Shown in pieces: positions 16,401-62,615 of a DNA stretch of 64,000 bases. This DNA comes from an uncultured Verrucomicrobia subdivision 3 bacterium. Lineage in GTDB: Bacteria; Verrucomicrobiota; Verrucomicrobiia; Limisphaerales; UBA11358. The position numbers and the translations under genes were made by a program. Numbering within the stretch: position 1 is the first letter of the stretch; the number at the start of each line of letters is the position of its first letter. Where the stretch lies: contig CAIXFY010000027.1 in NCBI GenBank assembly GCA_903918885.1, positions 76,542 to 140,541 of the forward strand. The letters run 5' to 3'. The notes beneath the pieces are model-generated. The model was not told the origin of the DNA, ran no database searches, and saw only the letters and a list, made by a program, of their open reading frames with translations.

Positions 16401-19400
16401 GTTTGAAGGCCGGGTTCGTCCGAACAGTTTTACCAACGCCTTCACCAGCATCATGACGCGGAGTGCCATCCGCAATCATAGCAACTTTGCCAGGCTGCAC
16501 GGCGGGGCTACGCCCGGGCCGGGCAACGTGGGGCTGAATTATACCAGTTACTCGGTGAACAAGAGCGCGGATTCCATGTTTGTCAGTCTGGTTCGCACCA
16601 ACGGCAATCTGGGGCCGGCGGCGGCAAACTTTTCGATCAATCCCGGTCTGGCGCAGAGCGGGGTGGATTATTTCTACACGGGTGATTACAACGGCGCCAG
16701 CCCGCTGTATTGGATCGAGTGGGAATATGTTGGCCCGACTCGTATGCACAGCGATGCACTATTAGGTCAAAATGCCGTGCCTTTTGACACGGCTTCCGGC
16801 CAATCTTTTTCCGGCGTTTCCTGGCCGGCGGTCAACGTCACCATCGCGGGCAATACCAATTCTTTCAATGACCTTAATGCCCAATTTCAGATGGCCAATC
16901 CGGTGAAAGACCAGTTCTATCTCGGCGGTGAAGATATTGCGCTGGGCGTGGCCCTCGGGGAATCCTCTGCGCCACTGAAAATTATCGAAGACCGGCATCA
17001 GTCCGGCACGTTTGGTTTTGCTTCGCCCGATTATACCGGCACCGGCTTGGCCGCGCCGATTGCCGTGACCCGCACTAATGGAACTTACGGCGTCGTCTCG
17101 GTGGCTTATACCACCACCACCAACGGCAGCACGGCGGTGGCCGGCGTCGATTATCGCGCGACCAGCGGTTCGTTGAGTTTCCAGCCGACCGATACCAATC
17201 GAACTTTCAACGTGACCATTCTAAACAGCAACTACGTCAGCTCGGTTGAAAAGAAGGTGAACCTGCTGTTGACCGGCATTAATCCGCCGGTGAATGGCAT
17301 CGCCAGCTTGGGAACGACGAATGCCGTCTTGCGTATCATCAATCCAAATTATCAAGGCTACTTGAATTTGAGCACGAACACTTACGCGGCCAATTTGAGC
17401 GCGGGCTTTGTCAGCATCACCGTGACCCGCACGGTTGGTAGCAAGGGAACACTGACCTTGATGTGTGCCACCACCAATAACTCGGCGGTCAGCGGCATAG
17501 ATTTCACCGGCTTTACCAATTTGCTGACTTGGAACAATGGTGATGTTGCCCCCAAAACCATCAACATTCCACTGCTCAACAACGGTCAGGTGGGAACCAA
17601 CCGCCAGTTCGGGGTGGTCATCTACAACCCGACCAATGGCGTAACCCTGACGCCTTCCTTGTTTGCCGCCAACGGCACGACCAACGCCACCGTCACCATC
17701 AACAATGACAATAGCTACGGAACCTTCCAGTTCGCCGCGCCCAGCTACGTCGTCAACGAAAACGGCGGCTATTCGACCGTGACCGTCTTCCGCAATGGCG
17801 CGACGAACGGCACGGCCAATATCCAGTTCGCGACCGCTGATGCCACGGCATTTGCCGGCACAAATTATGTCGCCACCAATGGCACGTTGAATTTTGTGGC
17901 CGGCCAACTGGCGGCCAGTTTTAAGGTTCAGATTTTGAATGACGGCGTTTCTAATCCTCCGCCGGCCAACTTCTATTTCACTTTAACTTTGTCCACGACC
18001 AACCTTGGCGTGGTTTTGGGCACGCCCTCAGTGGTCAACAATTACATCGTGGATGATGCCAGTTTCAATCGTCCGCCGGGTGTCACTGACTCATCGTTTA
18101 ATCTGGGCACCGGCATGAACGGCGATGTGTTGGCGCTGGCCTTGCAGTCCACTGGCAAAATTGTCGCTGGCGGCACATTCACCACCGTGGATGGGGTTCC
18201 TGAAAATTATTTGGCGCGGCTGAATGCCGATGGCTCACCGGACACCACGGGCTTTCTCTCCGGTCTGGCGGGCGGCAATGGAACCGTCTATGCCCTCGCG
18301 AACCAGACAGACGACCAGTTGCTGGTGGCGGGAGCGTTCACCTCGTTCAACGGTCTGGTCCGCAACCGCATCACTCGTTTGAACACGGATGGTTCCACGG
18401 ACAGCAGCTTCAAGCCGGGTGCCGGAGCGGATAACACGATTTACGGAATCGCCGAAACTTTTATTGGCGGTGTCCGCAAGATTTATATTGGCGGCGCGTT
18501 CAGCACCATCAACGGTATTTCTCATCCCAATGTCGCGCGCTTGAATAATGACGGCACGGTGGACGGCGGTTTTGCTCCGGGCACCGGTCCAACCGCCACG
18601 GTTTACGCGGTGGCACCCTATCCGACCAATTCATTTTATGCCGGTCAATTGCTGGTGGGCGGCGCGTTCACCAATATCAGTAATTTTGCCGTGAGCGGCA
18701 TTGCGCGTTTGAATGCGAATGGTTCGCTGGATACCAATTTTGATTTCAATCTGAAGACCAGCGGTGCGGTTCGGGCGATTGCGATTCAGCGTGATAACCG
18801 GATTCTCATCGGCGGTGATTTCACTAATGTCAACGGCGTGGCGGTTAGTCACCTCGCCCGGCTGAATAGCGACGGTTCGCTGGACACCAATTTTGTCGCC
18901 AATATTGGTGGGGGCGTCAATGGTCAGGTCAACGGTATCGCGGTTCAACAGGATAGCCGGATTGTGGTCGTCGGCCAGTTTTCGCTGGCCAACGGCGTGA
19001 CCCGCAACGGCATCACGCGCTTGCTACCCACGGGCGTGGTGGATCCGAGCATCAATTTTGGTGACGGCGCGAACGGTGCGGTGGACGCCGTGGTCGTTCA
19101 GCCAAATGACCAGATGATTGTAATCGGTGGCGCCTTCACCCAATACAACGACCAGCCGGCGGGGCGCATCACGCGCATTTACGGTGGGTCGCAAACGGGT
19201 TCCGGCGCGTTTGAGTTCACTTCGCCCACTTATCAGATTGATGAGAACGGCATTCAGGCACTCATCGGCATCCGGCGCACGGGCGGCACCAGTGGCACGA
19301 ATGCGGATGGTTCCGGCAGCGTGGCCGTCAACTTCTCCACCAGCGATGGCACGGCGACCAATGGCATTAATTATCGGGGCGTGAACCAGAGCGTCAGCTT

Positions 19401-21981
19401 CCCCGCTGGCGAGGTGCTCAAGACTATTGCGGTTCCGGTGATGGATGACTCGAATATCACGGCCAATTTGACGGTCAACCTCGCGCTTTCCAGCCCGACG
19501 GCTCCGGCTATCATCGGTGACCAGCCCGTCGCGGTGCTGACTATTATCAATGATGACAACGCGGTGAGCTTCACCTCGGATAATTATCCGGTGGCGAAAA
19601 ATATTCTTACCGGCTTTGGCGAGTTGCATATAGCGCGAATCGGTTCCATCAGCGGCAGTTGCTCGGTGAGCTATTTGACGACGACCAACGGCACGGCTGT
19701 CAGCGGCACGGATTATTATCCGACCAATGGCACGGTCACCTTTAGTCCGGGGGATACGGACAAAACCATCTATGTGCCGGTCATCAACAATAATCTGCCG
19801 GAAGGTGACCGCACGGTGACTTTGATTTTGTCGAATAATGTCGGGGCCTTGATGTATGCGCCTTCAAACACGGTGTTGACTATCAAAGATACGGTGATTT
19901 CTCCGGGCTTGTTGAGTTTCTCAGCCACAAACTACACGGTGGGTTCCGGCGATGGCAGCACCACCATCACAGTGTTGCGCACCAACGGAACTTCCGGCTC
20001 CATCTCGGTGGCGTTCTACACCCAGCCCGGAACGGCGTTGCCGGGCATTGATTATACTCCGGTTAGTGGCACGCTGACCTTCAATGATGGTGACACGCTC
20101 AAGACCTTTGATGTGCCGGTGTTGAATAATCCGGTGGCTCAAATACCGGTCAGTTTGTCTGTGTTGCTCTCCAATCCTGGCGGCGGGGCAACCATTGTTG
20201 CTCCCACCAATTCCACGCTGACGATTTTGAACACGAACATCGGGTTTGCTTTCTTGAGCGGCACGAATTATTTCCGCGAGACCAATGGCAATGCGTTGAT
20301 TTTTGTCCGGCGTGTTGGGAGCGCAAACGGCAGCGCCCAGATCAATTACTCAACCACGCCCGGCACGGCGTTGCCCGGCGTGAACTACAATTCAGTTTCC
20401 AACACCCTGACGTTTGGTGATGGCGAAGCCTTGAAATCCATCGCCTTGCCGTTGTTGCACGATCCGCGAGTGACGGGTGATTTGCTCCTGAACTTGAACT
20501 TGTCCAATCCCGGCGCCGGCACTTCGCTTGTGAGTCCAAGTAATTCGCTCGTGGTGCTGCAGGATGCCGATGCGGGTATAAGCTTCACCAATTCGGCCAT
20601 CAGCGTATTGAAGAATGTCGGTCAGGCGGTCATCACCGTCGTCTGCACTAATCCCGTGGTCGAGCCGCCGGTGTCCAATACCAATCTCGCCCCGATGTCG
20701 GTTCAATATACGACGCTCGATGGCACGGCGGTAGCCGGAGTGGATTATCAGACGACAACCGGAACGTTATTGTTCACCAATGGCAACGGGACGAACACGT
20801 TCAATGTGACTATTTTCAACAACAGTCAGGTGACCGGCGATCACAATTTCTCGGTGCGATTGTTCAATGCCACCGCGCCCGGTCAGGTGGTTGCGCCGAG
20901 CAATCAGGTGGTCACCATTGTGGATAACAATTCTGGCTTGAGCTTCTCCCGTCCGGTTTACACGGTCTTGAAGTCCAGTGCTTATGCCACCATCACCGTC
21001 TTGCGCACCGACTTCACCAACACCGTTACCTCTGTTAACTATGCCACCGCCGACGGAACGGCGTCCGCCGGCGCGGATTATCTGGCCACGAGCGGCACTT
21101 TGGTTTTCACCAATGGCGAGACGAGCAAGACTTTTGCAGTCACCAATCTTCCCAGCTTGACGGTGCAACCGGACAAGACCGTGCAACTACAATTGTCCAA
21201 TCCCACCAATGGTTTTCTCATTGCGCCGTATGCGGCGACGCTCACGATTCACGATACCAGCGGCAGTCTGGTGGTGGCGGCGGGATCTGCATTTGCTCCG
21301 GGCGGGGACCCGAACAACAACGGCATCATTGATACCAATGAAACGGTGTCGCTGATGCTGGCGTTGCGCGCCAGCGGTGGAACCAACGTCAACAATTTGT
21401 CCGCCACGCTGCTGTCTGCCAACGGGGTTAGCGTGACTAACTCACCGAACTTGCCGACCCAATATTACGGCACGCTGACGGTGAACGGCCCGTCGGTTTC
21501 CCGGCCATTCAGCTTCACCGCCGTGGGCACGAACGGCCAGCAGATTTTGCTGACATTGCAGTTGAGCAATGGCGTGACGAATCTCGGCACGGCATCTTTC
21601 ACCTACACACTCGGCACTTGGGCGACCACGTTCTACAACACCAACCTCATCGTCATCAACGATGCGCTGGGGCCGAACAAACCCACGATTGCCGCGCCGT
21701 ATCCGTCCACCATCGTTGTTAGCAACGTGGGCGGCGTGGTCATCAAATCCGTAGTGACGTTGAGCAATCTGTATCACGGGTTCACCAAGGACATCGAGGC
21801 GTTGGTTGTTTCACCGGCGGCGCAAGACACCTTAATCATGGCGCATGCGGGCAATGGCGGTGCCACCAAGATTACTCTGACGTTTGATGATGCGGCGGCG
21901 GGTTCGCTCTCCAGCACCAATCTGCTGCAGACGGGCACGAATAAGCCGACCGCTTACACACCCTTAACCACTTTCCCCTGA
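13408..21981 (+). CDS. Giant (2857 aa) secreted protein: PPC-like N-domain, two 7x delta-60 propeller blocks, many Calx-beta domains, C-terminal P-domain-like module
   Basis: A signal/anchor segment is present (IGCAILLAGLLVNVSRAQ). Delta-60 repeats of the type DGKIV(L/V)GGNFTxVNGxxRNxIARLNxDGSLDTTF occur seven times at about 15300-16400 and seven times at about 18110-19190. There are repeated Calx-beta signatures, for example GTAVSGTDYYPTNGTVTFSPGDTDKTIYVPVINNNLPEGDRTVTLILSN. The C-terminus is IVVSNVGGVVIKSVVTLSNLYHGFTKDIEALVVSPAAQDTLIMAHAG...LTFDDAA. Confidence 0.8.
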   Translation: MQKLTSLRLENLVRIGCAILLAGLLVNVSRAQDTFATAQVIYGDSGSVNDVDNGFFTPEAGAPTIAGLAPQYTAWFQWSTTNSGEVEFDTIGSVDDSTGVIQLDTVMGVYTGNSLATLNLLAANDDLYPNFQVNVSCQNYYTFANTNFAATKVAPTSFPLENLNFIYQPFSGAMNQPYYPINTGPSGLRFNAVAGKTYYIAVDTRNLPGFISLNWSLHPSGVFRFATENSDLNGLTYDDGVTPMLLYQTAATESSGHTVTSGDPIRYSVFNNANGVLVTVTRVAGSTGKVSVDYTTVDLPTQGGDFLANGDLPAVANVDYLPQSGTLTFDDNEMSKTILIPVINYDPFNAFFQLVPRPNRDFGIQLVDDGGDTSPLVDSAESSDVPPPRVDPMFGLAMVRILDVNSDPRAITSVTSTNGAGNPVVTYTTIATNAVFNFEKANYRVYRAGSNPGQKFTVYVARTGTNTDAATINYTVNSRYPFGRKSTTIENINYTFPLTPGSDYATPDPSGKVGGVWGVTPDFTFPSGYTGTLTWAAKDFRAKPISFNILDNGSQQFNEDFQIDLYDLDTQGNPLQVGMVAQTTVTILNASDLDNNGGTSNINPPAGAVDELYNADYGADFFINTVPPNMAHPGTDGQVYGLALQPDGNTVVVGDFFTYNGMGRNCIARVTSSGYLDNTFDTSDGADGFISCVTLTTNNEILIGGNFTSFKGSLRNYIALLNTSGGVDTTFNPGQGFNGPVYALAQEPNGQVLVGGDFTQYNGVTRNHLALLNLDGTLDGTFNPGTNLTAAVSALGLQPNGQIVVGGIFTNVAGIHGQNYATRLNADGTLDTTFDPGSGPNEAVYAVGIQPDGKIVLGGNFTQVNGSSYNGIVRLTTTGQLDPNFYCGIGLDGPVYHLNIATNTIYSTTNSSVVVQTNFTIYVGGEFTAYNGTHRLGFARLNADGTLDTTFLDTAYNQFAGLTREYFGDPVGSVQASAIQPNGDVLIGGSFEQVGGGQFEGRVRPNSFTNAFTSIMTRSAIRNHSNFARLHGGATPGPGNVGLNYTSYSVNKSADSMFVSLVRTNGNLGPAAANFSINPGLAQSGVDYFYTGDYNGASPLYWIEWEYVGPTRMHSDALLGQNAVPFDTASGQSFSGVSWPAVNVTIAGNTNSFNDLNAQFQMANPVKDQFYLGGEDIALGVALGESSAPLKIIEDRHQSGTFGFASPDYTGTGLAAPIAVTRTNGTYGVVSVAYTTTTNGSTAVAGVDYRATSGSLSFQPTDTNRTFNVTILNSNYVSSVEKKVNLLLTGINPPVNGIASLGTTNAVLRIINPNYQGYLNLSTNTYAANLSAGFVSITVTRTVGSKGTLTLMCATTNNSAVSGIDFTGFTNLLTWNNGDVAPKTINIPLLNNGQVGTNRQFGVVIYNPTNGVTLTPSLFAANGTTNATVTINNDNSYGTFQFAAPSYVVNENGGYSTVTVFRNGATNGTANIQFATADATAFAGTNYVATNGTLNFVAGQLAASFKVQILNDGVSNPPPANFYFTLTLSTTNLGVVLGTPSVVNNYIVDDASFNRPPGVTDSSFNLGTGMNGDVLALALQSTGKIVAGGTFTTVDGVPENYLARLNADGSPDTTGFLSGLAGGNGTVYALANQTDDQLLVAGAFTSFNGLVRNRITRLNTDGSTDSSFKPGAGADNTIYGIAETFIGGVRKIYIGGAFSTINGISHPNVARLNNDGTVDGGFAPGTGPTATVYAVAPYPTNSFYAGQLLVGGAFTNISNFAVSGIARLNANGSLDTNFDFNLKTSGAVRAIAIQRDNRILIGGDFTNVNGVAVSHLARLNSDGSLDTNFVANIGGGVNGQVNGIAVQQDSRIVVVGQFSLANGVTRNGITRLLPTGVVDPSINFGDGANGAVDAVVVQPNDQMIVIGGAFTQYNDQPAGRITRIYGGSQTGSGAFEFTSPTYQIDENGIQALIGIRRTGGTSGTNADGSGSVAVNFSTSDGTATNGINYRGVNQSVSFPAGEVLKTIAVPVMDDSNITANLTVNLALSSPTAPAIIGDQPVAVLTIINDDNAVSFTSDNYPVAKNILTGFGELHIARIGSISGSCSVSYLTTTNGTAVSGTDYYPTNGTVTFSPGDTDKTIYVPVINNNLPEGDRTVTLILSNNVGALMYAPSNTVLTIKDTVISPGLLSFSATNYTVGSGDGSTTITVLRTNGTSGSISVAFYTQPGTALPGIDYTPVSGTLTFNDGDTLKTFDVPVLNNPVAQIPVSLSVLLSNPGGGATIVAPTNSTLTILNTNIGFAFLSGTNYFRETNGNALIFVRRVGSANGSAQINYSTTPGTALPGVNYNSVSNTLTFGDGEALKSIALPLLHDPRVTGDLLLNLNLSNPGAGTSLVSPSNSLVVLQDADAGISFTNSAISVLKNVGQAVITVVCTNPVVEPPVSNTNLAPMSVQYTTLDGTAVAGVDYQTTTGTLLFTNGNGTNTFNVTIFNNSQVTGDHNFSVRLFNATAPGQVVAPSNQVVTIVDNNSGLSFSRPVYTVLKSSAYATITVLRTDFTNTVTSVNYATADGTASAGADYLATSGTLVFTNGETSKTFAVTNLPSLTVQPDKTVQLQLSNPTNGFLIAPYAATLTIHDTSGSLVVAAGSAFAPGGDPNNNGIIDTNETVSLMLALRASGGTNVNNLSATLLSANGVSVTNSPNLPTQYYGTLTVNGPSVSRPFSFTAVGTNGQQILLTLQLSNGVTNLGTASFTYTLGTWATTFYNTNLIVINDALGPNKPTIAAPYPSTIVVSNVGGVVIKSVVTLSNLYHGFTKDIEALVVSPAAQDTLIMAHAGNGGATKITLTFDDAAAGSLSSTNLLQTGTNKPTAYTPLTTFP

Positions 21982-33796: not shown

Positions 33797-36700
33797 TTAT
33801 TGGTTGGGAAGTTCAATGGGGGCAAAGGTGACATGCTCGAAACGGCCATAGGAGCCGTCTTCGAGCAGGTATGGAATTACATAGGTGACAAAATTGGTGG
33901 TCGCCGCGTTCCAATGGACGATAAACAGCTTGCCTTGGTTTGGAGTAACGTTTTCTCCTGCATCAGCAATCAATAAGTCGCCAACGTAATTCGTGAAATA
34001 ATTCGCGGAGAGCTTTATGAGTCGTCCGTTGCCGTTATCACAGGCATACAGATTTTGATTGGCGGGAATCATGTCAAAGTCTTCGGGATGGATGCCACCT
34101 TCAATCATGTTCGTCGTGTAATAAGTCGCAACCGCACCATTCGTGGCAATAGTATAAATCACGGGACTGGAATTTAGGTTCTGATCTAAGGCATCCTCAT
34201 CCCCCGTAATTATCTTACCCGCCCACGGTCCCCACTTGGCCACATCATTGGTCAGCGTGATGACGCCTTCCAAGTGCTTCGTGTTGATATTGGTGATTAA
34301 AGTCGGGTGTGCCTGTGCGTCCACACGCCACACGCCTTTGTTGCCGAGTGTGACATCCGCCCCGCTGGTCACGGCAATCACTTGGTTGCTAAACGTGCCA
34401 GTCTGATCCACATACAAACTGCCGCGCAGGAGCAGCGGATTGACCACCGTGGCATTGGTCAGCACGCACCAGCTCAAGTTAGAAACGCTGCCGTTGGCCG
34501 AGAGCTTGCCAATACCTGTGTCGCTGCCAAAGTAAACTTCGCCGTTCGTAAAACCGTTCACGGTCTTCTTTACCGTCGCCAGCTTTACTTCTTCCGATAC
34601 GCCGGACACGTTCGACCAGTTGGTCATTAGCAGGTTCGTGCTGGGTGCATTGGTGTAAAGTCGCACAAAGTTATAAGGGCTGCCGGAACTGTAATTGTAA
34701 GACACAATCAATGAGTTGGACGGCGCGTGATAGTCAATCCCCACGGGCGAGGTTATGCTAGTCACCGTTGTGAACAGCACCGTGTCTTGAATAGTATTGG
34801 TTTCGGCGGCAGCGGTGGCAGCCACCATATAGCCGTTCGTGGCCACAAGCGTCAGAATCACCGTCTCATCGCCCTCAATCAAATAATCCAACAGCGGCTG
34901 GATGTTTATATTGGTGGCGGTTTCGCCGGGGGCAAATGTCACCGTGTTGGTGATTTTGGTGTAGTCCACCCCGTTGCTCGCCGTGCCGGAAATCACATAC
35001 CTCACAGTCAGGTTGGTGTAGAAGCCGTTGTCGTCGGCACGCGTCAGGGTAAAGTAACCGGTCTGGCCAGGATAATTATTGGTGTTAAAGCCCGGTTCAA
35101 TGGTGTTTTGAGCATTGTAAATCCCCACAGTGGTGGTGCTGTCGGCAATGGTCGCCGTGCCGGTGGCGTTGTTCGTCTCAATGAAGTAGCCATTCGTCGC
35201 GTTGTCCAGCAGGGTCAAGGTCACGGTCTCCAATCCTTCCGCCAGAGTATCCGCCAGCGGCGTGATGTCTATATTGGTGGTGGTGATGCCCGGTGCAAAA
35301 TTCACTGTGCCGCCCAAAAAGGTGTAATCCACGCCGTTGCTGGCTGTGCCAGTGATGACGTAGCGCACCGGCAGGTTGGTATAAATCCCGCGCGTGTCGT
35401 AACGGGAAAACGAAAACGTGGCGGGCACGGCGGGCGCACCCGGCGGACCATTTGGCTCCACTGCCGCCGCCGCACTTACGCCCATGCTCACGGTGGTGGA
35501 AGAATCATAAATGTTAAGGCTGGCCGCATAGTTGTTGGCATCCACGGCATAGCTGTTCGTCGGCAGCAAAGTGAGCGTCACGCTTTCCACTCCTTCCGGC
35601 AGGTTGTCTTTCAGCGGGTTGATGATGATATTGGTGGCGGTTTCGCCGGCGGCAAAGGTCACGGTGTTGGTGATTCTGGTGTAGTCCACCCCGTTGCTCG
35701 CCGTGCCAGAAACCATATATTGCACCTTCATCGCGTTGGTGTAGATGCCCCGAAAATCGGAGCGATACACACTGAAAGTCCCCGTTGTCGCCGCCACGCC
35801 CGGCGGGCCATCGGGTTCAATCGCATCGTAGCCGCCCGCAGAGATGCTAACCGTGGTGGAACTGTCATATAGATTGATGGTTGCCGTGCTGTTATTCGGA
35901 TCAATGAGATAATCATTCGTCCGCATCAGTGTCAGCGTCACCGTTTCCATTCCTTCCAGCAAACTGTCCGCGATGGGATTGATGACGATGGGTGTGGAAC
36001 CGGTGCCATTGGTCAGTGTCGCCACGCCGGACAAAGCGGTGTAATCCACTCCATTGCTCGCCGTGCCGCTGACGCGATAATAGACCGTGACATTGTTAGT
36101 CACGCCCGAGGCTTGGTAGCCAGATATGTAAAAAAGACCGGCCTGTCCGGGAACGCCGCCAAAAGGTTCCACCGCGTCCAGCGAGGCACTGATGGAAACC
36201 GCCCAACCAGCCTGATGGATGCGGAAAAACATCAGCGGATTATCCGTGATGTCCACCGGGGTAAAGAGCGTCGTGTTGGTCGCCGTATCGCCAAAGCGAA
36301 TCTCGCCCGGTTGCCACCAGTTGTCCAGCAGGTTGGTATTGCTCAAAAGCTGGTAGAGGTTGGTTTCCGAAGTGTTGTGCGCCAGCACCGTCGCCAGTTG
36401 GTTGGTTGTATCCAGACTCGTGACCTCCAACCACAAAGTTGTTGGGCTATAAGACGCCAGCATCGGCGCAAAGCTTCTTTGCTGCTGCGAGGAATCTTCT
36501 TCCATCCCCAAAGCCGTCGCCAACTTCTGCGTCACCTGTGCGCCCAAAACTTGTTCAACCAAATTCGCCACAGAATTGGCCAACGCCTCCACCGCCGTCG
36601 TCACCTGTTCCGCCGTGACCGTCATCCCCGACCGTCCCGCCCGCCGCGAACTGGCACTCATCACCTGTCCGCGCGTGGCATCCACCAGAAAGATGTTGCC

Positions 36701-36994
36701 CGTGATGTTGTAAATCGGCTGGCTTAAATCTGGTGGCGGACAAGGCCAAGGCGCGCTGACGCCATTGGAGGAAACCACCCAGTAAGTGCCGAACCCCGGC
36801 AGATTCGCCGGATCAATCTGCGCCAAACCTTTCGCCTCGGCGGTCACGGCCACAACGGAATCCGGCTGCGCCGGTTGCTCAATGCCGCTGGCTTGAACGG
36901 GTTGAGCCGATTGAAAAGATAGTTGTGCGTGCAGAACGCCCAGAAGTGTCAGCAGTCCCAGCCCGATGAATAATCCGCCTTTGATTGATTTCAT
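33797..36994 (-). CDS. Large secreted protein with four Calx-beta domains and a C-terminal beta-rich domain
   Basis: 1065 aa with a signal peptide (MKSIKGGLFIGLGLLTLLGVLHAQ). There are four repeats of about 118 aa, each carrying Y(R/M)(V/I)SGTASNGVDYT...F(A)PGETATNI.I.PL.D.L.EG.E(S/T)V.LTL, at roughly 34717-36142. The stop lies 5 nt before the PEP-CTERM gene start. Confidence 0.8.
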   Translation of the reverse strand: MKSIKGGLFIGLGLLTLLGVLHAQLSFQSAQPVQASGIEQPAQPDSVVAVTAEAKGLAQIDPANLPGFGTYWVVSSNGVSAPWPCPPPDLSQPIYNITGNIFLVDATRGQVMSASSRRAGRSGMTVTAEQVTTAVEALANSVANLVEQVLGAQVTQKLATALGMEEDSSQQQRSFAPMLASYSPTTLWLEVTSLDTTNQLATVLAHNTSETNLYQLLSNTNLLDNWWQPGEIRFGDTATNTTLFTPVDITDNPLMFFRIHQAGWAVSISASLDAVEPFGGVPGQAGLFYISGYQASGVTNNVTVYYRVSGTASNGVDYTALSGVATLTNGTGSTPIVINPIADSLLEGMETVTLTLMRTNDYLIDPNNSTATINLYDSSTTVSISAGGYDAIEPDGPPGVAATTGTFSVYRSDFRGIYTNAMKVQYMVSGTASNGVDYTRITNTVTFAAGETATNIIINPLKDNLPEGVESVTLTLLPTNSYAVDANNYAASLNIYDSSTTVSMGVSAAAAVEPNGPPGAPAVPATFSFSRYDTRGIYTNLPVRYVITGTASNGVDYTFLGGTVNFAPGITTTNIDITPLADTLAEGLETVTLTLLDNATNGYFIETNNATGTATIADSTTTVGIYNAQNTIEPGFNTNNYPGQTGYFTLTRADDNGFYTNLTVRYVISGTASNGVDYTKITNTVTFAPGETATNINIQPLLDYLIEGDETVILTLVATNGYMVAATAAAETNTIQDTVLFTTVTSITSPVGIDYHAPSNSLIVSYNYSSGSPYNFVRLYTNAPSTNLLMTNWSNVSGVSEEVKLATVKKTVNGFTNGEVYFGSDTGIGKLSANGSVSNLSWCVLTNATVVNPLLLRGSLYVDQTGTFSNQVIAVTSGADVTLGNKGVWRVDAQAHPTLITNINTKHLEGVITLTNDVAKWGPWAGKIITGDEDALDQNLNSSPVIYTIATNGAVATYYTTNMIEGGIHPEDFDMIPANQNLYACDNGNGRLIKLSANYFTNYVGDLLIADAGENVTPNQGKLFIVHWNAATTNFVTYVIPYLLEDGSYGRFEHVTFAPIELPNQ

Positions 36995-37709
36995 TTATTC
37001 CCTTTCTTCGCGAACCCTGTCCCGGAACTAAAGAGCGCGGACTCGACGCACTCTGTCCCAGGCACCGCGAAGCGCCTTCCAACATAGCACGCCAAGCCGC
37101 GCCAGTTGGCGCGTGCTTGGTGATAATGTTGGAGGCTTGGAAATTCGCGGTTTCGGGACAGCCCCGTAGCCAAAGCTACGCAAATATGTTTTAGTTCTTT
37201 GTCGGATATAGCCGACTGGTTTGTTTCTACGCCCGTCACTGCCGATTGACAAGACTTTTTTGGTAAAGTTCCCCTTGCGCGCGAGACTGCCAGATTGGGC
37301 ATTCCCCTTAAAAGACGACGCCTGACCAATCCGCCAGACTCACGCTCTCCCTATGTTTGACGGAGACTATGGAAAGTTGGCACTACCGCGCAAATTGCCG
37401 TGGCGCGTCCATGCCAATTTTCCACAGACTCCGAGGGTTTGAATTGAAAAGTTAGTTGGGTTGTTTGTCTTCGCCTTTTTTAGCTGCCGTCATTCCCCAC
37501 CGTCTGCCGCTCACTCGTCCGACAACCAGCCGAGTTTGGTAGCGAGATCAAAAACCGCGCCAGCGTGTCCCCTTCACCCTCTTCCCCACTGTCACGCTTT
37601 TAGCTTTCGCTTGGTATGGATTGCATTTCATGCACGGCTCGCTGTCTCCCGCAATGGTGAAGCGAGCAGCATACGGCAGGGTGACGGACAGCGGTTTCAA
37701 AAAAAAGCT

Positions 37710-38072
37710 ATGAAAACAACAAATCAAACAATTGAAGCGAAACAAGCTCCGGCGAATGTCCGGCCATCGTCGGCTTCAAAACATCAGATGAATCGGGGAT
37801 TATCCACACAGGCGGTCTTGAACTGCTTGCGGTCAAAGTTGCCGCAGCAATACGAATTGGCGGAAGTTGTCGGCAAATGGGTTTGGCTCGATGTGTCACC
37901 AGCACGGAAGCCGATGCTGGCAAAAATGCTTTGGTCTTTGGGCTTTCACTGGAATCAGCGGCGCGGCGTCTGGCAGCATCCTTGCGGTAGCTTTGACCCG
38001 CTCGGCAGTCATCCCACCGACCCGCGCAGCAAGTATCGCTGCTATTTTCCCGCCGATGTTTTGCCCGCCTAA
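37710..38072 (+). CDS. Hypothetical small protein at the right end of the island
   Basis: 120 aa from the ATG at 37710. The annotated ORF from 37461 begins with TTG and has an implausible leader. The C-terminal pattern VGKWVWLDV...LWSLGFHWNQRRGVWQHP recalls small orphan proteins of plasmids and ICEs. That recollection is unverified. Confidence 0.4.
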   Translation: MKTTNQTIEAKQAPANVRPSSASKHQMNRGLSTQAVLNCLRSKLPQQYELAEVVGKWVWLDVSPARKPMLAKMLWSLGFHWNQRRGVWQHPCGSFDPLGSHPTDPRSKYRCYFPADVLPA

Positions 38073-38216
38073 ACCTAGAAATTCGCCACCGGCACTGTCA
38101 GTGAAAGTGTCAGTGAAAATTCACGCGGGTAGTGAAAAATTGTGGCGCGTTAAACCAAATAGTCTTTAATTTTACCAACGATTTGCTAATTTCCCTTTGT
38201 CTGAATCAATGCTAAA

Positions 38217-38246
38217 GATGTGTTTCATCTATACAAATCTGTGGCT
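38217..38246. repeat. Half copy of the AGCCACAGA-family palindromic element immediately downstream of gcvP
   Basis: Sequence: GATGTGTTTCATCT-ATACAA-ATCTGTGGCT. The last 10 nt are the exact reverse complement of 28871-28880 and overlap the gcvP stop codon (38245-38247). Confidence 0.65.
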
Positions 38247-57175: not shown

Positions 57176-57271
57176 GGATGATTTTTTCAACAACCTAACC
57201 TGAAAGTCAACCGGTTGCGTCGCCAATTTTACTTTTCTTTCGCCACCCGAAGTTTAATTTGCCGGACGCAA

Positions 57272-58693
57272 ATGGCCTTGAAACTGTTCAATACGCTGAC
57301 CCGCTCCGTGCACGAGTTTGTCCCGCTTGATTCGCAGAAGAAAAAAGTCGGGATGTATTGTTGCGGGCCGACGGTTTATGACTTCGCGCACATCGGCAAC
57401 TGGCGCACGTTCGTCTTCGCCGATCTCGTCCGCCGCACGCTGGAATTTTCCGACTACGACGTGACGCACGTCATGAACATCACCGACGTGGAAGACAAAA
57501 TCATCAAGCGCGTCCGCGAACAGAAAACCACGCTGCGCGAGTTCACCGGCAAATTTGAAACCGCTTTCTTGGAAGATTTAAAAACGCTGAATTGTTTGCC
57601 GCCAAAACAAACGCCACGCGCCACGGAACACATCCCGGAGATCATCGCGCTCATCGAAAAGCTCGTCGCGCGCGGCGTGGCCTACAAAGCAGCCGATGGC
57701 TCGGTTTATTTTTCCATTGAGAAATATCGCGGCTGCGGTTGCCACTACGGCCAGTTGCTGAAACTGAATCTGGACGAAATGCGCGCCGGCGAACGCGTCG
57801 CCAGCGACGAATACGAAAAGGAATCCGTCGCCGACTTCGCGCTCTGGAAGGCGCGCGTGTCGGACGACGGCGAGGTTTTCTGGCCGAGTCCGTTTGGCGA
57901 AGGCCGGCCCGGCTGGCACATCGAATGTTCCGCCATGAGCATCAAGGCGCTCGGCGAAACCTTTGACCTGCACCTCGGCGGCGAGGATTTGAAATTTCCG
58001 CATCACGAAGACGAAATCGCCCAAAGTGAAGGCGCGACCGGCAAGCCATTCGTAAAATTCTGGCTGCACGGCGCGCATCTGCTCGTCGAAGGCAAGAAGA
58101 TGAGCAAGTCGCTGGGAAATTTTTTCACGCTGCGCGATTTGCTGGCGAAAGGTTTCACCGGCCGCGAAGTGCGTTATCTGCTGCTCACCGCGCACTACCG
58201 CGAAACATTTAATTTTACCCTCGATGGCTTGGCCGGCGCGAAATCCGCGCTGGCGCGGATTGACGAATGCGTGGGCAAGCTGCGCGATATCGCTGGCGAC
58301 TTCAAAACGAGTGAGTTTGCCAAACAAGCCACCGACAGCCTACTAGTAAAAAGTTTTTCTGCCGCACTTGCAGATGATCTGAATATTTCCGCCGCGTGGG
58401 CTTCGGTTTTCGAATGGGTGCGTGAAACGAATAAACACATTGCCGACAATTCAATCCCAGACCATGAAGCCGCTTTTGCTTTAGCCGCGTGGGAAAAAGT
58501 AGATTCCGTCCTCGGCGTCGGCGTGAAAGCCGAAGCTGAAGTTCCCGCTGAGATTTCTGCGCTCGCCGACGAACGCACCGCGGCGAAGAAGGCGAAAGAT
58601 TTCAAGCGTAGCGACGCGATTCGCGACGAGTTGAAAGTCAAAGGCTGGGTTGTCGAAGACACGCCGAAGGGCATAAAGTTGAAAAGGATTTGA
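57272..58693 (+). CDS. cysS: Cysteine--tRNA ligase
   Basis: Motifs seen: MYCCGPTVYDFAHIGN (HIGH), GWHIECS, HGAHLLVEGKKMSKSLGN (KMSKS). I prefer the ATG at 57272 (MALKLFNTLTR). Confidence 0.95.
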   Translation: MALKLFNTLTRSVHEFVPLDSQKKKVGMYCCGPTVYDFAHIGNWRTFVFADLVRRTLEFSDYDVTHVMNITDVEDKIIKRVREQKTTLREFTGKFETAFLEDLKTLNCLPPKQTPRATEHIPEIIALIEKLVARGVAYKAADGSVYFSIEKYRGCGCHYGQLLKLNLDEMRAGERVASDEYEKESVADFALWKARVSDDGEVFWPSPFGEGRPGWHIECSAMSIKALGETFDLHLGGEDLKFPHHEDEIAQSEGATGKPFVKFWLHGAHLLVEGKKMSKSLGNFFTLRDLLAKGFTGREVRYLLLTAHYRETFNFTLDGLAGAKSALARIDECVGKLRDIAGDFKTSEFAKQATDSLLVKSFSAALADDLNISAAWASVFEWVRETNKHIADNSIPDHEAAFALAAWEKVDSVLGVGVKAEAEVPAEISALADERTAAKKAKDFKRSDAIRDELKVKGWVVEDTPKGIKLKRI

Positions 58694-60407: not shown

Positions 60408-61066
60408 TTTTCCACCAACATTAGCCTGCGGATTTCGGCCAACAGCCACGCGCTGGTTTCAGCCGAGGTCATGCTGGAGTTGTTCAGGACTTTTGCACCG
60501 AGCGCGATCATCAGCGGCGCGACCGCGCGCTGGCTGTCGCGCTGGTCGCGCGCGGCGAGATTTTCATTCACGCCGTCAGCCGTGCGCCGCGCCGTGCGTT
60601 CAGCTAGCGAAGCATCGAGGTAAAATTTGTAATCCGTTTCCGGAAAAACATTCGTGCCAATATCGCGGCCTTCCATGACCAGATTGCCAAACTGGATGCA
60701 GTCGCGCTGCGTCTGCTTCATCCATTTACGCACATTGGGCACGGCGGCAACGTGCGATACGGCGGCGGCAGTTTCCGGCATGCGGATTTCTTTCTCCGGG
60801 AAATAGCTATCCACGAGCAGCCGCACCGAGCGCAGACCGTCGTTTTCGGCGCATTCCAGCTTGGTCTTCCACTTGCGACAAGCGGCGGCCACGGCCTTGG
60901 CGTCGTTCACGTCCACGTGCTTGAGCAGGCAATGCCACGCCAGCGTGCGATACATCGCGCCGGTGTCCACATAAACGTAGCCGAGCGCGCGGGCGACGAG
61001 CTTGGCGTTTGTGCTTTTGCCGCTGGCACTTGTGCCGTCAATGGCGATGACAATGTTGTTTTTCAA
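60404..61066 (-). CDS. cmk: Cytidylate kinase
   Basis: 220 aa. Motifs seen: IAIDGTSASGKST, YVDTGAMYR, MEGRDIGT. The start appears to be TTG, as there is no in-frame ATG upstream of the P-loop. Confidence 0.9.
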   Translation of the reverse strand: MKNNIVIAIDGTSASGKSTNAKLVARALGYVYVDTGAMYRTLAWHCLLKHVDVNDAKAVAAACRKWKTKLECAENDGLRSVRLLVDSYFPEKEIRMPETAAAVSHVAAVPNVRKWMKQTQRDCIQFGNLVMEGRDIGTNVFPETDYKFYLDASLAERTARRTADGVNENLAARDQRDSQRAVAPLMIALGAKVLNNSSMTSAETSAWLLAEIRRLMLVEK

Positions 61067-61083
61067 AATAAATTCTTGGTTTA

Positions 61084-61150
61084 GACACAGATTTTACTGA
61101 TCAACACGGATTCAATCCGTGAAAATCCGTGCAATCCGTGTCTCAATCCG
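61084..61150. repeat. AATCCGTG short-period repeat cluster with inverted copy in the aroA-cmk spacer
   Basis: GACACAGAT is at 61084-61092 and the inverted CACGGATT at 61105-61112. AATCCGTG occurs at 61114, 61124 and 61133, and AATCCG at 61145, which overlaps the aroA stop. ATCCGTGTC at 61134-61142 is complementary to GACACAGAT apart from one G.T pair. Confidence 0.75.
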
Positions 61151-62615
61151 CAAACAATTCTTCGTGCGTCAATTTTCTGCCGGTTCGTGCGTCCAAAATA
61201 GTTGCGCCCAAACCATTGGGAGGTGGCCCTGCCACCTTTTGGAAAAAATTCGGGAACGTCTTTTTAACGCAGGCGGGATTTTTAATTTTTATGCCCGGCA
61301 CTTTCAATCCCAGAATCGCAAAACACATCGCCATGCGATGGTCGTTGTAGGTTTCAATCTCCGCGCCGTGAAGCTGCGACGGCCAAACCGTCAGCGTGTC
61401 GCCTTCCTCGACGACTTTCGCGCCGCACTTGGTCAGTTCCGTCCGCAATGCGACGACGCGCTCGCATTCCTGAACGCGCAGGCGGCCAAGATCGGTAAAA
61501 AGAATTTCGCTCAACCCTGTTGCAACTAAAGCGATTAAAGTCATTATGCTGTCGCCGAGATCGTCTTTCCGAGATCGCTTTGGCAGCGCTGGCGCAGGAG
61601 GTTGCCGGGGGGCATTGCGAAGTCTTTCACGCCAATCTGGTTCTCCTTTGGCATCGTTTGACTCTTCAATGCGCCAATTTAATTTCGCCAGAAATATGAT
61701 TTGATCTAGAAATTTGCTATCAATTTGCCAACCAGTAAAATGTGGCCAATTTAGAACATCGACAGGTGAACTTAAATTCCCATTCCGTTCTACAATCGCT
61801 TCCATTTCTTTGGCTGAATACAAATAATTGACTCCTAAAAAATAACTCCCGCTGCTCGCATCCGGCTCGATTTGAAATTCACCGCCTTTGGGAAACGCCT
61901 CGATGAGTTTGCTCGTCATCGCCACATACGGCGATTCGTCCGCGTTCTCGCCAACAATTTCAATTTCCCAGCCGCCATGCTTGGCCGAGAGCAGCAACGC
62001 CGACGCGAACTGCGAACTTTCCTCGATGCTGACGCGGCATTTTTTCTTTTGCCACAGAGGCGCAGAGGACACTGAGTTGGAATTTCCCCCCTCTGTGCGC
62101 TCGGTGTCTCTGTGGCTAATTCTAACGGGCAACTTGTCATTGCCCTGCTCGGATTCCACGCGGTAACCGAGTTCGCGCAGCGCCGAAAACAGCGCGGCCT
62201 GCGGACGTTCGTGCATTCGCGGCACGCCGTGCAACCGATACACACCGCTGCCGAGACAGAGAAACGGCGCGAGAAACCGCGCCGCCGTGCCGGCATTGCC
62301 CACGAACAAATCCAGCGGCTGCGTTTCCGTGCCGCCGCGCGGAACCACGCCACCATTGCCGTAAACCGTGATGGTGCGATTGCAAGTCTCGTTTGGATCC
62401 GCTTCCACATTCACCATGAAGCCAAGTTCCTGCAAACACTCGACCATGATTTGCGTGTCTTCGCTCCAGAGCGCGCCGCGCAAAACCGTTTCGCCATCCG
62501 CCAACGCCGCGAGAATCAGCGCGCGGTTGGTGATGCTCTTGGAACCGGGCACGGTAATTTCCGCGCGCACCGGCGCGGTCAGTGGAACAATTTCGATGAG
62601 TTCGGGAAGCGCCAT
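61143..62615 (-). CDS. aroA: 3-phosphoshikimate 1-carboxyvinyltransferase (EPSP synthase) carrying in-frame insertions
   Basis: Motifs seen: VPGSKSITNRALILAALADG, LFVGNAGTAARFL, SSQFASALLL, DASSGSYF, RVQECERV, DHRMAMCFAILGL. I prefer the ATG at 62615 (MALPELIEI), 7 nt downstream of the tyrA stop (62623), although the ORF is open from 62687. At 490 aa it is longer than the typical 430-450 aa. Confidence 0.9.
   Translation of the reverse strand: MALPELIEIVPLTAPVRAEITVPGSKSITNRALILAALADGETVLRGALWSEDTQIMVECLQELGFMVNVEADPNETCNRTITVYGNGGVVPRGGTETQPLDLFVGNAGTAARFLAPFLCLGSGVYRLHGVPRMHERPQAALFSALRELGYRVESEQGNDKLPVRISHRDTERTEGGNSNSVSSAPLWQKKKCRVSIEESSQFASALLLSAKHGGWEIEIVGENADESPYVAMTSKLIEAFPKGGEFQIEPDASSGSYFLGVNYLYSAKEMEAIVERNGNLSSPVDVLNWPHFTGWQIDSKFLDQIIFLAKLNWRIEESNDAKGEPDWRERLRNAPRQPPAPALPKRSRKDDLGDSIMTLIALVATGLSEILFTDLGRLRVQECERVVALRTELTKCGAKVVEEGDTLTVWPSQLHGAEIETYNDHRMAMCFAILGLKVPGIKIKNPACVKKTFPNFFQKVAGPPPNGLGATILDARTGRKLTHEELFAD
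62051..62116. repeat. 66-nt palindromic AGCCACAGA-family element inside the aroA reading frame
   Basis: GCCACAGAG (62051-59) pairs with CTCTGTGGC (62108-16). GCGCAGAGG (62060-68) pairs with CCTCTG(TG)CGC (62090-100). On the minus strand it is translated as SHRDTERTEGGNSNSVSSAPLW. Confidence 0.8.

Follow-up and report, generated by a model that had tools for sequence, protein, structure and literature searches.

How does an imperfect palindrome come to lie in frame within the gene for EPSP synthase, and why has it persisted there? Rickettsia has supplied the textbook examples of this curiosity, palindromic repeats read in frame within essential genes. The case analyzed here is located in the aroA gene of a 64-kb stretch of DNA (the window), and its features are as follows.

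61143..62615 (-): aroA, coding for a 490-aa EPSP synthase (class-I-like; the same protein as P0001)
62051..62116 (-): 66-nt imperfect palindrome, the in-frame repeat element of the 64-kb window
62091..62116 (-): 5' arm in the aroA sense, heptamers CACAGAG, CACCGAG and CACAGAG, coding S-H-R-D-T-E-R-T-E
62077..62090 (-): central loop of the hairpin, codons of the G-G-N-S region
62051..62076 (-): 3' arm in the aroA sense, complementary units CTCAGTG, CTCTGCG and CTCTGTG, coding S-V-S-S-A-P-L-W
62043..62117 (-): 25 codons S167-K191, in place of the 8 codons FGEGAKKG of insert-free orthologs
Predicted AroA peptide spanning the insert junctions: DTERTEGGNSNSVSSAPLWQK

Sequence and folding of the palindrome

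On the + strand, the first half of positions 62051-62116 reads GCCACAGAG-G-CGCAGAG-GA-CACTGAG and is followed by the loop TTGGAATTTCCCCC, after which the sequence continues as CTCTGTG-CG-CTCGGTG-T-CTCTGTGGC. In the aroA sense the palindrome reads GCCACAGAG-A-CACCGAG-CG-CACAGAG, the loop, and CTCAGTG-TC-CTCTGCG-C-CTCTGTGGC. Each arm is 26 nt long and consists of three 7-nt CACAGAG-type heptamers with spacers of 1-2 nt, and the element has the termini GCCAC...GTGGC. A preliminary description of this DNA had reported a two-tier hairpin, and both tiers, an outer stem of 9 bp and an inner one of GCGCAGAGG/CCTCTG(TG)CGC, were found as described. The sense RNA of the element folds at -35.6 kcal/mol (z -5.4), with 0 of 200 shuffles folding as well; the antisense RNA folds at -39.3 kcal/mol (z -6.8), and the DNA fold has a z of -5.2. 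The 9-mer GCCACAGAG occurs three times in the 64-kb window, compared to 0.24 expected occurrences. Sequence, folding and reading frame thus bear out the reported 66-nt palindrome at 62051-62116 in frame within aroA. The 22 codons that had been reported span 62052-62117, one base off the palindrome. An Rfam scan of 60900-62400 with E up to 10 returned chance-level matches only (E of 1 or more), and a terminator and promoter scan showed no signature at the aroA element.

The AroA protein and the encoded loop

AroA matches Pfam PF00275 (E 2e-70) and, among PDB sequences, the E. coli, Vibrio and plant EPSPS (E about 1e-50), and the top Foldseek matches of its model are all EPSPS structures. The protein has each of the tested attributes of an EPSP synthase, namely PF00275, the two-domain EPSPS fold and the substrate-binding motifs; among 63 orthologs there is no variation in the motif columns K26, R31, G109, R137, S200-Q202, D355, E383, R386, H426-R427 and K452. 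The surrounding gene order, tyrA-aroA-cmk-plsC, is conserved in relatives.

The palindrome codes for S167-W188 and, as the preliminary description had stated, is placed between the LPVRI and SSQ blocks, where AroA reads ...LPVRI SHRDTERTEGGNSNSVSSAPLW QKKKCRVSIEESSQFASALLL... The AlphaFold model of AroA has a mean pLDDT of 84.8, with residues 172-184 below 50. Mapped onto this otherwise confident EPSPS model, the insert is a low-confidence loop between two strands, 164-167 and 192-196. The model therefore predicts that the insert peptide is a disordered surface loop. All catalytic motifs of the protein are intact, and the insert would presumably be neutral for the enzyme. In line with RPE-like coding palindromes, the frame is intact in 28 orthologs, the loop is permissive, and translation is predicted. 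That the loop is translated is implied by the intact frame, which is kept in all carriers.

Comparison with insert-free orthologs

Alignment with orthologous proteins delimited the insertion into a conserved short turn. Compared to the empty site, 75 nt replace 24 nt, so that the net gain is 51 nt, or 17 aa, not 22. This is not a clean insertion, as eight native codons are lost. There is no target-site duplication at the aroA junctions; instead, 24 nt of the target are missing. Between LPVRI and SSQ, the AroA of the window has 33 residues and insert-free orthologs have 16 (LPVKI to SSQ), in place of the approximately 10 that the preliminary description had given for EPSP synthases. The eight-residue turn FGEGAKKG is conserved in deeper-branching orthologs and in some close ones: a loop of eight residues was found in 24 of 49 GTDB representative loci and in 23 of 120 close orthologs, the latter having been chosen by similarity to the insert-bearing query. 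The same CACAGAG-type insert is present in 28 distinct orthologs among these 120. By comparison of these sequences, the 66-nt element is an insertion relative to its orthologs.

A dispersed family of palindromes

The 25-nt arm pattern was found in at least 120 metagenome contigs and in 115 viral-contig stretches, almost always between genes, and arrays recur in short intergenic gaps of virus-like contigs. Among the matches listed, the family members are inverted arm pairs with 4-180 nt between them, plus many single arms. The flanks of the intergenic copies extend the palindrome and hold no direct repeats. Single arms showed no clear 5'-UTR orientation bias with naive ORF calls, which are noisy in GC-rich contigs. 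A literature search with the arm sequences found no paper. On sequence evidence, the aroA segment belongs to a dispersed, mostly extragenic palindromic family.

Possible intragenic copies in the metagenomes were also inspected. Of the 30 full hairpins, ten spanning ORFs were examined; these were antisense or R-rich artefacts or read-through into a downstream gene and were discounted, some of them merely adjoining real genes such as pstS.

The window contains one CACAGAG-type copy and two to three related arrays:

61080..61146 (-): hairpin of the same architecture, 3+3 CAC(A/G)GAT units, 3 nt after the aroA stop
28871..28927 (+): intergenic hairpin of CACAGAT units, has AGCCACAGA in common with the element in aroA
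38220..38246 (-): single array of CACAGAT-like units, ends in AGCCACAGAT, directly after the gcvP stop codon

The terminal signature that the preliminary description had noticed is indeed shared, since AGCCACAGA is found at 28871 (+) and at 38238-38246 (-), both intergenic; the units at these two sites are CACAGAT-type, not CACAGAG-type. No CACAGAG-type copies were present in the flanks of loci L001 and L003, and no Pfam match to a transposase or RAYT was obtained among the 42 ORFs of the window. Because no target-site duplication, transposase or RAYT was found, mobility of the element is proposed by analogy only. A second candidate in-frame element, in cysS of the window at a site that is occupied in relatives, was rejected because it is not palindromic (z 0.15).

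Repeats in the aroA loop of other lineages

The same AroA loop, and no other, is expanded in 97 of the 120 orthologs, and in this set the turn of eight residues takes at least ten different states. The hairpin repeats that occupy it belong to at least five families with no relation to one another (b, c/c', d, e and f), of which the c, d and e inserts start with GGTAG, end with CTACC and therefore resemble GTAG REPs. Matches to repeat-signature motifs in AroA numbered 115 inside the loop and 0 outside. Two other segments of the protein vary in length by up to 37 and 50 residues and never contain repeats. This makes the protein an unusually rich experiment of nature: since one turn is rewritten while two hypervariable segments are repeat-free, a preference for the site can be separated from mere structural tolerance.

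Repeat occupancy of the loop is patchy, even among 95%-identical proteins. P0008 and P0027 are sister proteins of 95% identity, yet near the loop P0008 resembles P0027 no more than it resembles distant carriers, and the modest local mismatch excess between the two is suggestive of recombination, although not decisive. A gene-conversion tract around the insert was not apparent, as the flanks are diverged up to the junctions with only an approximately two-fold local mismatch excess. The patchy distribution requires recombination or recurrent events, which weighs against the explanation preferred here.

Conservation of the heptamers and age of the aroA copy

Ten aroA copies were compared at the DNA level. 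They have in common the junctions ATT/[AGT]GCCAC and GTGGC/[AT]A (the slash marks the junction) and a K-rich stretch, and their loops are 14-20 nt long. The mean pairwise identity was 0.92 for the units, 0.50 for the spacers, 0.60 for the loop and 0.55 for the third codon positions of the gene. Third-codon sites were variable in 5 of 16 cases inside the units, compared to 360 of 411 elsewhere in aroA (p = 6e-7), and conservation tracks the unit period, not the codon period. Pairing was 87.3% in the ten copies and 86.4% in the shuffle control, with 77 of 500 shuffles as high; as covariation was not above this control, only conservation of sequence, not structure-preserving evolution, is claimed. 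The copies in P0010 and P0054 are visibly decaying.

The spacers and loop of the aroA copy have diverged as far as synonymous sites, which argues that the copy is old, and the agreement of the carriers in junctions, frame and similar loop length argues that it arose once. As judged from these alignments, the insert is old and shared, not recent. The heptamers remain 92% identical against saturation (50-60%) of spacers, loop and synonymous sites, so that whatever acts here acts on the nucleotides and not on the peptide. Such strict conservation across saturated divergence is unexpected for a neutral fossil. The uniformity of the heptamers most likely has the same cause as that of the family as a whole, namely sequence-specific recognition or gene conversion. 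Quasipalindrome correction by template switching (Ripley; Lovett laboratory) maintains or perfects imperfect inverted repeats during replication without selection. This process would keep complementarity via paired changes, not the heptamer sequence, and paired changes are not in excess here.

Relationship to known repeats

The phenomenon is already known from the Rickettsia palindromic elements (RPEs) and from intragenic REPs, including those of the verrucomicrobium Opitutus. RPEs (Ogata et al. 2000) are about 100-150 bp long, as summarized in a review (PMC10969869). They resemble the present case as dispersed palindromes that lie in frame in housekeeping genes, are translated at fold-tolerant sites, and belong to families that are intergenic too. 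Their host is an alphaproteobacterium with an obligate intracellular life, in which they are reported from numerous sites in numerous genes, whereas the aroA loop has many families at one site. By description, the aroA element is set apart from RPEs by its 66 nt, its heptamer-array arms, its free-living verrucomicrobial host and presumably its sequence.

REPs inside ORFs are known to encode 20-30 aa, the highest GTAG count is that of the verrucomicrobium Opitutus terrae, different REPs occupy about the same recB site in two Xanthomonas species, and aroA is absent from the list of intragenic REPs (Di Nocera et al. 2013, PMC3733652). The element of the window lacks a GTAG or CGTC tag; because one family of O. 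terrae is reported to have GTGG as a degenerate form of the tag (PMC3733652), this difference is not absolute. In contrast to the single stem of 6-13 bp in GTAG/CGTC REPs, the aroA element has 26-nt arms of three direct heptamers, and its 66 nt exceed the REP unit of 20-40 bp with a stem of 5-13 bp. MITEs with in-frame ORF fusions include ERIC, Correia and Nezha (reviewed in PMC10969869 and PMC2229807). Like MITEs, the element has terminal inverted repeats around a variable center (26-nt arms, and a 4-180 nt core in family members), is small and of non-coding origin, and lies in frame inside a gene, as MITEs occasionally do; it differs in having no target-site duplication, and many family members are single arms.

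The present case goes beyond those known in that many repeats occur in one loop and the heptamers are conserved at the nucleotide level. It also places the same process in free-living Verrucomicrobiota, with a previously undescribed repeat architecture, the arms of three heptamers.

Origin and persistence of the insert

The aroA segment is probably a non-autonomous, hairpin-forming dispersed repeat that entered the gene once, is old, and is read as a disordered loop. The repeat family would normally fill short intergenic gaps in verrucomicrobial genomes (subdivision 3, Pedosphaerales/Limisphaerales) and in other environmental genomes. We infer a mode of insertion in which one copy entered the DNA for an exposed beta-hairpin turn, directly upstream of the SSQ motif that binds shikimate-3-phosphate, and swapped 8 codons for 25. 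The reading frame would have survived because none of the six frames of the arms contains a stop codon and because the net length change is divisible by three. The 17 added residues would be made as a disordered surface loop, with the enzyme staying intact. The aroA copy is now scattered among lineages, beside empty alleles and alleles with other repeats, presumably via homologous exchange of loop segments through the very conserved flanks, hairpin-for-hairpin replacement, or both. The earlier proposal of a REP/MITE-like insertion tolerated as a surface loop is therefore supported. Its REP/MITE label holds by analogy only, and "merely tolerated" is incomplete, since the heptamers are conserved at the nucleotide level far beyond neutral expectation.

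An explanation with the identical insertion origin and a different reason for persistence is that the hairpin or heptamer array is a functional cis element under selection in the aroA message or gene, the peptide being a by-product. Candidates are an array that binds protein, a hairpin for processing or stability of the RNA, a translational pause, and an SD/anti-SD-like (GAGG/CCUC) structure. We regard this as possible, although the balance of evidence is on the other side. It would account for the unit-restricted conservation, with its non-codon period, and for the strong folding of ten of ten copies (z -5 to -12). It is also consistent with the same-architecture hairpins that many relatives have 3-8 nt after the aroA stop or ending 7-18 nt before the start, with the position in or beside aroA of 18-19 of the 23 unit arrays counted across 1.09 Mb of aroA loci, with the unrelated hairpin repeats in the loop of other lineages, and with the arrays in short gaps of virus-like contigs. 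However, 23 of the 120 close orthologs lack the insert, as do most of the deeper relatives, two copies are decaying, covariation does not exceed its control, and neither a terminator or promoter signature nor an Rfam family was detected. The enrichment of arrays in the aroA flanks partly reflects shared ancestry of two or three orthologous insertions, and ectopic gene conversion from other copies could yield the same unit-only conservation.

More tentatively, and with rather low expectation, the heptamer hairpins may be, in place of junk, a cis element that is recognized by its sequence, as bound DNA or at the RNA level, and that serves Pedosphaerales genomes and their viruses as intergenic punctuation, with the aroA turn as a genuine landing pad where such hairpins integrate, displace each other and are swapped between lineages. 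If this is true, it would constitute a natural, repeatedly rewritten cassette within an essential enzyme.

It is doubtful that the aroA loop is a true integration hot spot, in which repeats entered independently and repeatedly through target preference or a resident hairpin serving as landing pad. The confinement of repeats to this loop despite length variation elsewhere argues for it, as do the slightly different junctions of the at least five families, all within the same 24-nt stretch, and nested or composite inserts such as AESGKRKAE inside the loop of a c-type insert. Parsimony on an NJ tree gave at least 53 state changes, but this tree is poorly resolved at a median identity of about 78%, and the 120 orthologs had been selected for their resemblance to a query that carries the insert. 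Also counted in its favor were cysS, with one repeat at one site in three species, and the known IS elements that target REPs (PMC8450116). The CACAGAG type itself points to one event, because its ten DNA copies agree in junctions, frame, eight-codon loss and loop length, compared to intergenic loops of 4-180 nt.

It is very improbable that the protein had this loop ancestrally or that codon choice produced the palindrome by coincidence: the peptide is common to 28 orthologs, but the eight-residue turn is conserved in outgroups and in 95%-identical sister proteins, all ten DNA copies of the loop are palindromic, the arm pattern recurs at hundreds of unrelated intergenic places, and none of the shuffles folds equally well. 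An artefact of assembly or chimera formation is ruled out by the identical protein on 9 contigs from two sources (NCBI and ENA) and by the insert in 28 distinct orthologs, with homologous inserts in independent assemblies from many samples; intron- or intein-like removal of the 66 nt from RNA or protein is, as far as sequence can tell, very improbable, given the frame kept in all carriers, the lack of an Rfam intron match, and a length of 22 residues, which is far too short for an intein.

The conservation of the heptamers at the nucleotide level against a saturated background provides a concrete handle on how repeat families are kept up, whether by selection, conversion or a recognition protein. 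In practical terms, the inserts lengthen AroA and yield spurious low-complexity peptides that confuse annotation and alignment, and they point to a loop in which the target enzyme of glyphosate tolerates 6-35 additional residues.

The hairpin in aroA

The preliminary description had placed a 66-nt palindrome in frame within aroA, and its sequence, its folding and the surrounding reading frame agree with that. The relevant features of the window are:

62051-62116: imperfect palindrome, plus strand GCCACAGAG-G-CGCAGAG-GA-CACTGAG-TTGGAATTTCCCCC-CTCTGTG-CG-CTCGGTG-T-CTCTGTGGC
61143-62615, minus strand: 490-aa ORF, EPSP synthase (PF00275, E 2e-70)
28871 (+) and 38238-38246 (-): intergenic sites sharing the AGCCACAGA signature with the aroA element

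The palindrome ranks third by length among the inverted repeats of the window, and each arm consists of three CACAGAG-like heptamers (units) with spacers of 1 and 2 nt. Folding gave -35.6 kcal/mol for the sense RNA (z -5.4), -39.3 kcal/mol for the antisense RNA (z -6.8) and a z of -5.2 for the DNA, and no shuffle was as low in any of the three cases. The terminal 9-mer occurs 3 times in the window against 0.24 expected, and the common signature is as first reported. The translation (LPVRI-SHRDTERTEGGNSNSVSSAPLW-QKKKCRVSIEESSQFASALLL) was likewise read correctly; the count of 22 codons is right, but these occupy 62052-62117, one base off the palindrome.

Insertion into a conserved turn

A protein search returned 120 close AroA orthologs (426-522 aa), and a genome scan assigned the lineage to Verrucomicrobia subdivision 3 (Pedosphaerales/Limisphaerales MAGs), the best GTDB representative being 72% identical. 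Of 49 representative loci, 24 show an unvarying 30-residue stretch at the loop region, DKLPAVIHGxGPxxGxCxVSIEESSQFASA, and 23 of the 120 orthologs have the equivalent turn without insert, FGEGAKKGK. The nearest empty alleles read ATT TTT GGT GAA GGT GCA AAG AAC GGC AAA TGC where the window reads ATT A[GCCACAGAG...CTCTGTGGC]AAAAGAAA AAA TGC; therefore, 24 nt have been exchanged for 75 nt, a net gain of 51 nt or 17 residues. Against these empty alleles, no target-site duplication was found. Judged from the alignments, the segment is an insertion into a conserved turn, but not a clean one, as eight codons were lost. The 10 or so residues previously expected between LPVRI and SSQ are too few, since insert-free enzymes have 16 (LPVKI to SSQ). 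With codons lost and no target duplication, the segment could have arisen by insertion with deletion, by replacement of an earlier hairpin, or by import through recombination.

An AlphaFold model of the window AroA, built on 63 orthologs, had a mean pLDDT of 84.8, and its top structural hits were EPSP synthases without exception; the closest solved relatives are the E. coli, Vibrio and plant class-I enzymes. The pLDDT fell below 50 only at residues 172-179 and 181-184, all within the insert, between strands 164-167 and 192-196. The surface loop proposed earlier is thus a predicted disordered loop between two strands of the fold; going by the established topology of EPSPS, it would be at a beta-hairpin turn on the outer face, before the helix that begins with SSQ. 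Columns matching known substrate-binding residues, which by motif context we take to be E. coli K22, R27, G96, R124, S169-Q171, D313, E341, R344, H385-R386 and K411, are invariant in the alignment, the window protein included, and the loop may well be neutral for the enzyme. Two other hypervariable segments, at 61785-61808 (residues 270-277) and 61593-61697 (residues 307-341), differ in length across the clade by as many as 37 and 50 residues and are partly helical in the model; neither holds a repeat signature in the 120 orthologs.

One turn, many repeats

At least ten states of this one turn were found across the 120 orthologs.

States of the AroA turn (signature; orthologs of 120; DNA-level hairpin where assessed)
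No insert; 23
Type b; CACAGAG type, SHRDTE.TE...SVSSVPLWQKK; 28; yes
Type c/c'; SRGDEAQT...SQSLLTSAAT and variant SRRESAQT...SRLTSAAT; 32; yes
Type d; RDAFHRVP...GDAVERVPT; 5; yes
Type e; RADLPVGQDARQRVPT; 2; yes
Type f; ERGSVSRS...AAGHRPAP; 1; yes
Type g; AGSPLPAD...RRARSDAPY; 2
Type h; AESGKRKAE; 14; no
Type i; TAGQPP...RKSAPAAP; 6; no
Type j; ...KYQ..LTS; 6
Unclassified; 1

Types c, c', d, e and f form strong hairpins at the DNA level (-42 to -77 kcal/mol, z down to -10), while types h and i show no palindromy there. Extra copies of types c', d, e and f occur elsewhere in their own loci. Types c, d and e start with GGTAG and finish with CTACC, as is characteristic of GTAG REPs (PMC3733652). 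The repeat signature peptides were found 115 times inside the loop and 0 times elsewhere in AroA.

Some aroA loops are composite (P0012, P0037, P0067; L004, L007, L029, L030). The non-palindromic AESGKRKAE, type h when alone, lies within the centre of a c-type hairpin; in L007, L029 and L030 a long f-type hairpin adds 35-38 residues. Their structure suggests nesting and partial deletion.

A dispersed repeat family

The arm pattern CCACAGAGNCACNGAGNNCACAGAG was found on at least 120 metagenome contigs, in at least 157 arms. Among the matches listed, about 30 are inverted pairs like the aroA element under a stricter pairing rule, with centres of 4 to about 180 nt, and the remaining arms are single or in tail-to-tail pairs. 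Ten ORFs spanning full hairpins were inspected, and all were spurious or read through into a real gene starting just downstream (pstS in locus L129, for example). The family is therefore mostly extragenic, as none of the ten was a convincing intragenic copy. The arms contain zero stop codons in all six frames, a direct consequence of the CACAGAG/CTCTGTG sequence that explains how a copy can be read through. Between the two arms of one element, 38 of 78 spacer positions are complementary, against 26.4 +/- 3.9 by chance (reached by 7 of 2000 shuffles). The arm sequences had no Rfam match, and the literature search found no paper on them.

The pattern also occurs in 115 stretches of IMG/VR contigs, in short intergenic gaps and with up to 5 arms per 11 kb, although these records may derive from genuine phages, from prophages still flanked by host sequence or from host DNA wrongly classed as viral. 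The stretches, with triple CACAGAG arms, are in L212-L291 and further loci (e.g. L213, 318-8464).

History and conservation of the CACAGAG insert

The DNA of ten carriers was compared (the window, L001, L003, L202, L205 and L207-L211). All ten share the reading frame and both junctions, ATT|[A/G/T]GCCAC on the 5' side and, on the 3' side, GTGGC with an A-rich run coding for lysine after it; their loops are 14-20 nt long. Compared with the centres of any length in intergenic members, this uniformity argues for one insertion event. All ten copies fold well (z -5 to -12), the window copy, with 3 unit mismatches, being among the weaker folders.

Mean identity between the ten copies is 92% over the 42 heptamer nucleotides, 50% over the six spacer nucleotides and 60% over the hairpin loop, against 73% for aroA as a whole and 55% for its third codon positions. 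Because the spacers and loop are saturated, the insert is old. Inside the units 5 of 16 third-codon sites vary, whereas the remainder of the gene varies at 360 of 411 (Fisher p = 6e-7), or at 193 of 237 where only codons with an invariant amino acid are taken (p = 4e-5). In the heptamers the nucleotides themselves are conserved, in step with the unit and not with the codon. A formal test of stem covariation was not significant (87.3% of cells paired vs 86.4% in shuffles), so the conserved feature is sequence and not merely pairing.

One possible cause of the heptamer uniformity lies in the other family members, through ectopic conversion or a recognition in common with them; about equally plausible, and the leading alternative, is that selection acts directly on a cis role of the hairpin or array. 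Quasipalindrome template switching could keep the arms complementary, but would leave the heptamer sequence unfixed.

On a neighbour-joining tree built from 420 core columns the turn states are intermingled and require at least 53 changes by Fitch parsimony, a figure that depends on a poorly resolved tree. More robust are the state differences between proteins with 95% core identity, P0008 (b) and P0027 (none), and P0010 (b) and P0119 (none); P0013 (h), P0022 (b) and P0028 (g) also differ in state at 88-90% identity. Median core identity is 0.78 both among type b carriers and between carriers and non-carriers. An old, single-origin allele distributed in patches beside ancestral-looking empty alleles implies that lineages have exchanged the loop segment, for which the sequence evidence is modest. 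Over the 90 nt downstream of the loop, mismatches between P0008 and P0027 are about twice as dense as on average, and from -90 to +181 nt P0027 is no nearer to P0008 than distant sequences are, whereas elsewhere it is clearly the nearest.

Relation to known repeats

The best-supported reading, a refinement of the preliminary one, is that a REP/MITE-like hairpin repeat lies in a permissive turn of an essential enzyme. It would have entered the turn, been kept because it preserves the frame, and been translated as a disordered loop. Events of this kind are already known. The Rickettsia RPEs are the classic in-frame palindromic repeats (PMC10969869), and Di Nocera et al. catalogued intragenic GTAG/CGTC REPs encoding 20-30 residues, with the top GTAG count in the verrucomicrobium Opitutus terrae and different REPs near the same recB site in two Xanthomonas species; aroA is absent from their table of intragenic REPs (PMC3733652). 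The aroA element works likewise, but it lacks the tag and unit size that define REPs and the target duplication of a MITE, and is therefore not filed in any named family. The finding is real, and the preliminary interpretation of a tolerated REP/MITE-like insert is supported with corrections. The palindrome, the insertion, the family membership, the loop and the constraint on the nucleotides have been demonstrated, whereas the way the repeat entered, its neutrality for the enzyme and the cause of the heptamer uniformity are inferred. Three features appear to be new: arms built as heptamer arrays, the extent to which several families occupy one turn, and conservation that follows the unit period within coding sequence. 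The locus is a tractable place to study what directs such repeats to a site and keeps them there.

Repeats around aroA and at other loci

Another hairpin built in the same way, from 3+3 CAC(A/G)GAT units, lies at 61080-61146 in the aroA-cmk gap, 3 nt past the aroA stop (sense RNA -33.1 kcal/mol, z -5.8), and this position is also hairpin-occupied in L024, L201 and L204. The tyrA-aroA gap of at least 8 other relatives holds the pair AACCACGGATG.ACACGGAT..ACACGGAT ... ATCCGTGT.CATCCGTGT.CATCCGTGGTT, inverted arrays of CACGGAT units that end 7-18 nt upstream of the aroA ATG.

In-frame or gap hairpins at other positions (locus and coordinates)
CACGGAT-unit pair, tyrA-aroA gap: L004 9849-9994; L015 9831-9983; L022 5040-5171; L059 9836-9994
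CACGGAT-unit pair, tyrA-aroA gap: L053 2604-2750; L008 9908-9990; L003 5590-5700
cysS in-frame hairpin: L059 14725-14790; L029 7105-7170; L018 6550-6615

The centre of the gap pair often nests other hairpins (GTAG REPs, CACGAAT-unit or CGCAGAT-unit), and L202, L204 and L206 carry other families of the same design there, with units GCACCAA, CGCCAAGG or CGCGAAG. Of 23 CAC(N)GA(G/T) arrays across 1.09 Mb of verrucomicrobial aroA loci, 18-19 lie in aroA or within 150 nt of it; common descent of two or three orthologous insertions accounts for part of this enrichment.

The cysteinyl-tRNA synthetase gene cysS carries an in-frame GTAG-tagged double hairpin at one site in three species (GKLRE[IAGRDALPRVQADQQVDPTGL]VKDF). 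At the equivalent site, the window enzyme (57215-58693) has a 20-residue segment that is not palindromic (z 0.15).

Between a hemerythrin gene and gcvP, 9.4 kb are enclosed by the hairpin at 28871-28927 and, in opposite orientation, the array at 38220-38246. Genes in this stretch code for a phage-integrase-family protein (29116-30141), an HTH protein (32342-32719) and a Calx-beta protein (33797-36994). The L202 counterpart is 3.6 kb with a Bro-N gene. The interval 28871-38246 has neither a tRNA nor an unusual GC content and is probably a variable island. A search of 42 window ORFs found no transposase.

Seven contigs with a clearly verrucomicrobial aroA (L002, L005, L006, L033, L036, L058, L062) carry record titles of unrelated taxa in GTDB/ENA (Bifidobacteriaceae, Sulfotelmatobacter, Limnocylindria, Baltobacteraceae) and are probably mislabelled MAGs. 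Unrelated to aroA, the window also has a secretin gene (1713-4640) and several large ORFs that lack Pfam matches, and after these comes a 2857-aa ORF at 13408-21981 containing 9 Calx-beta and 12 DUF5122 beta-propeller repeats.
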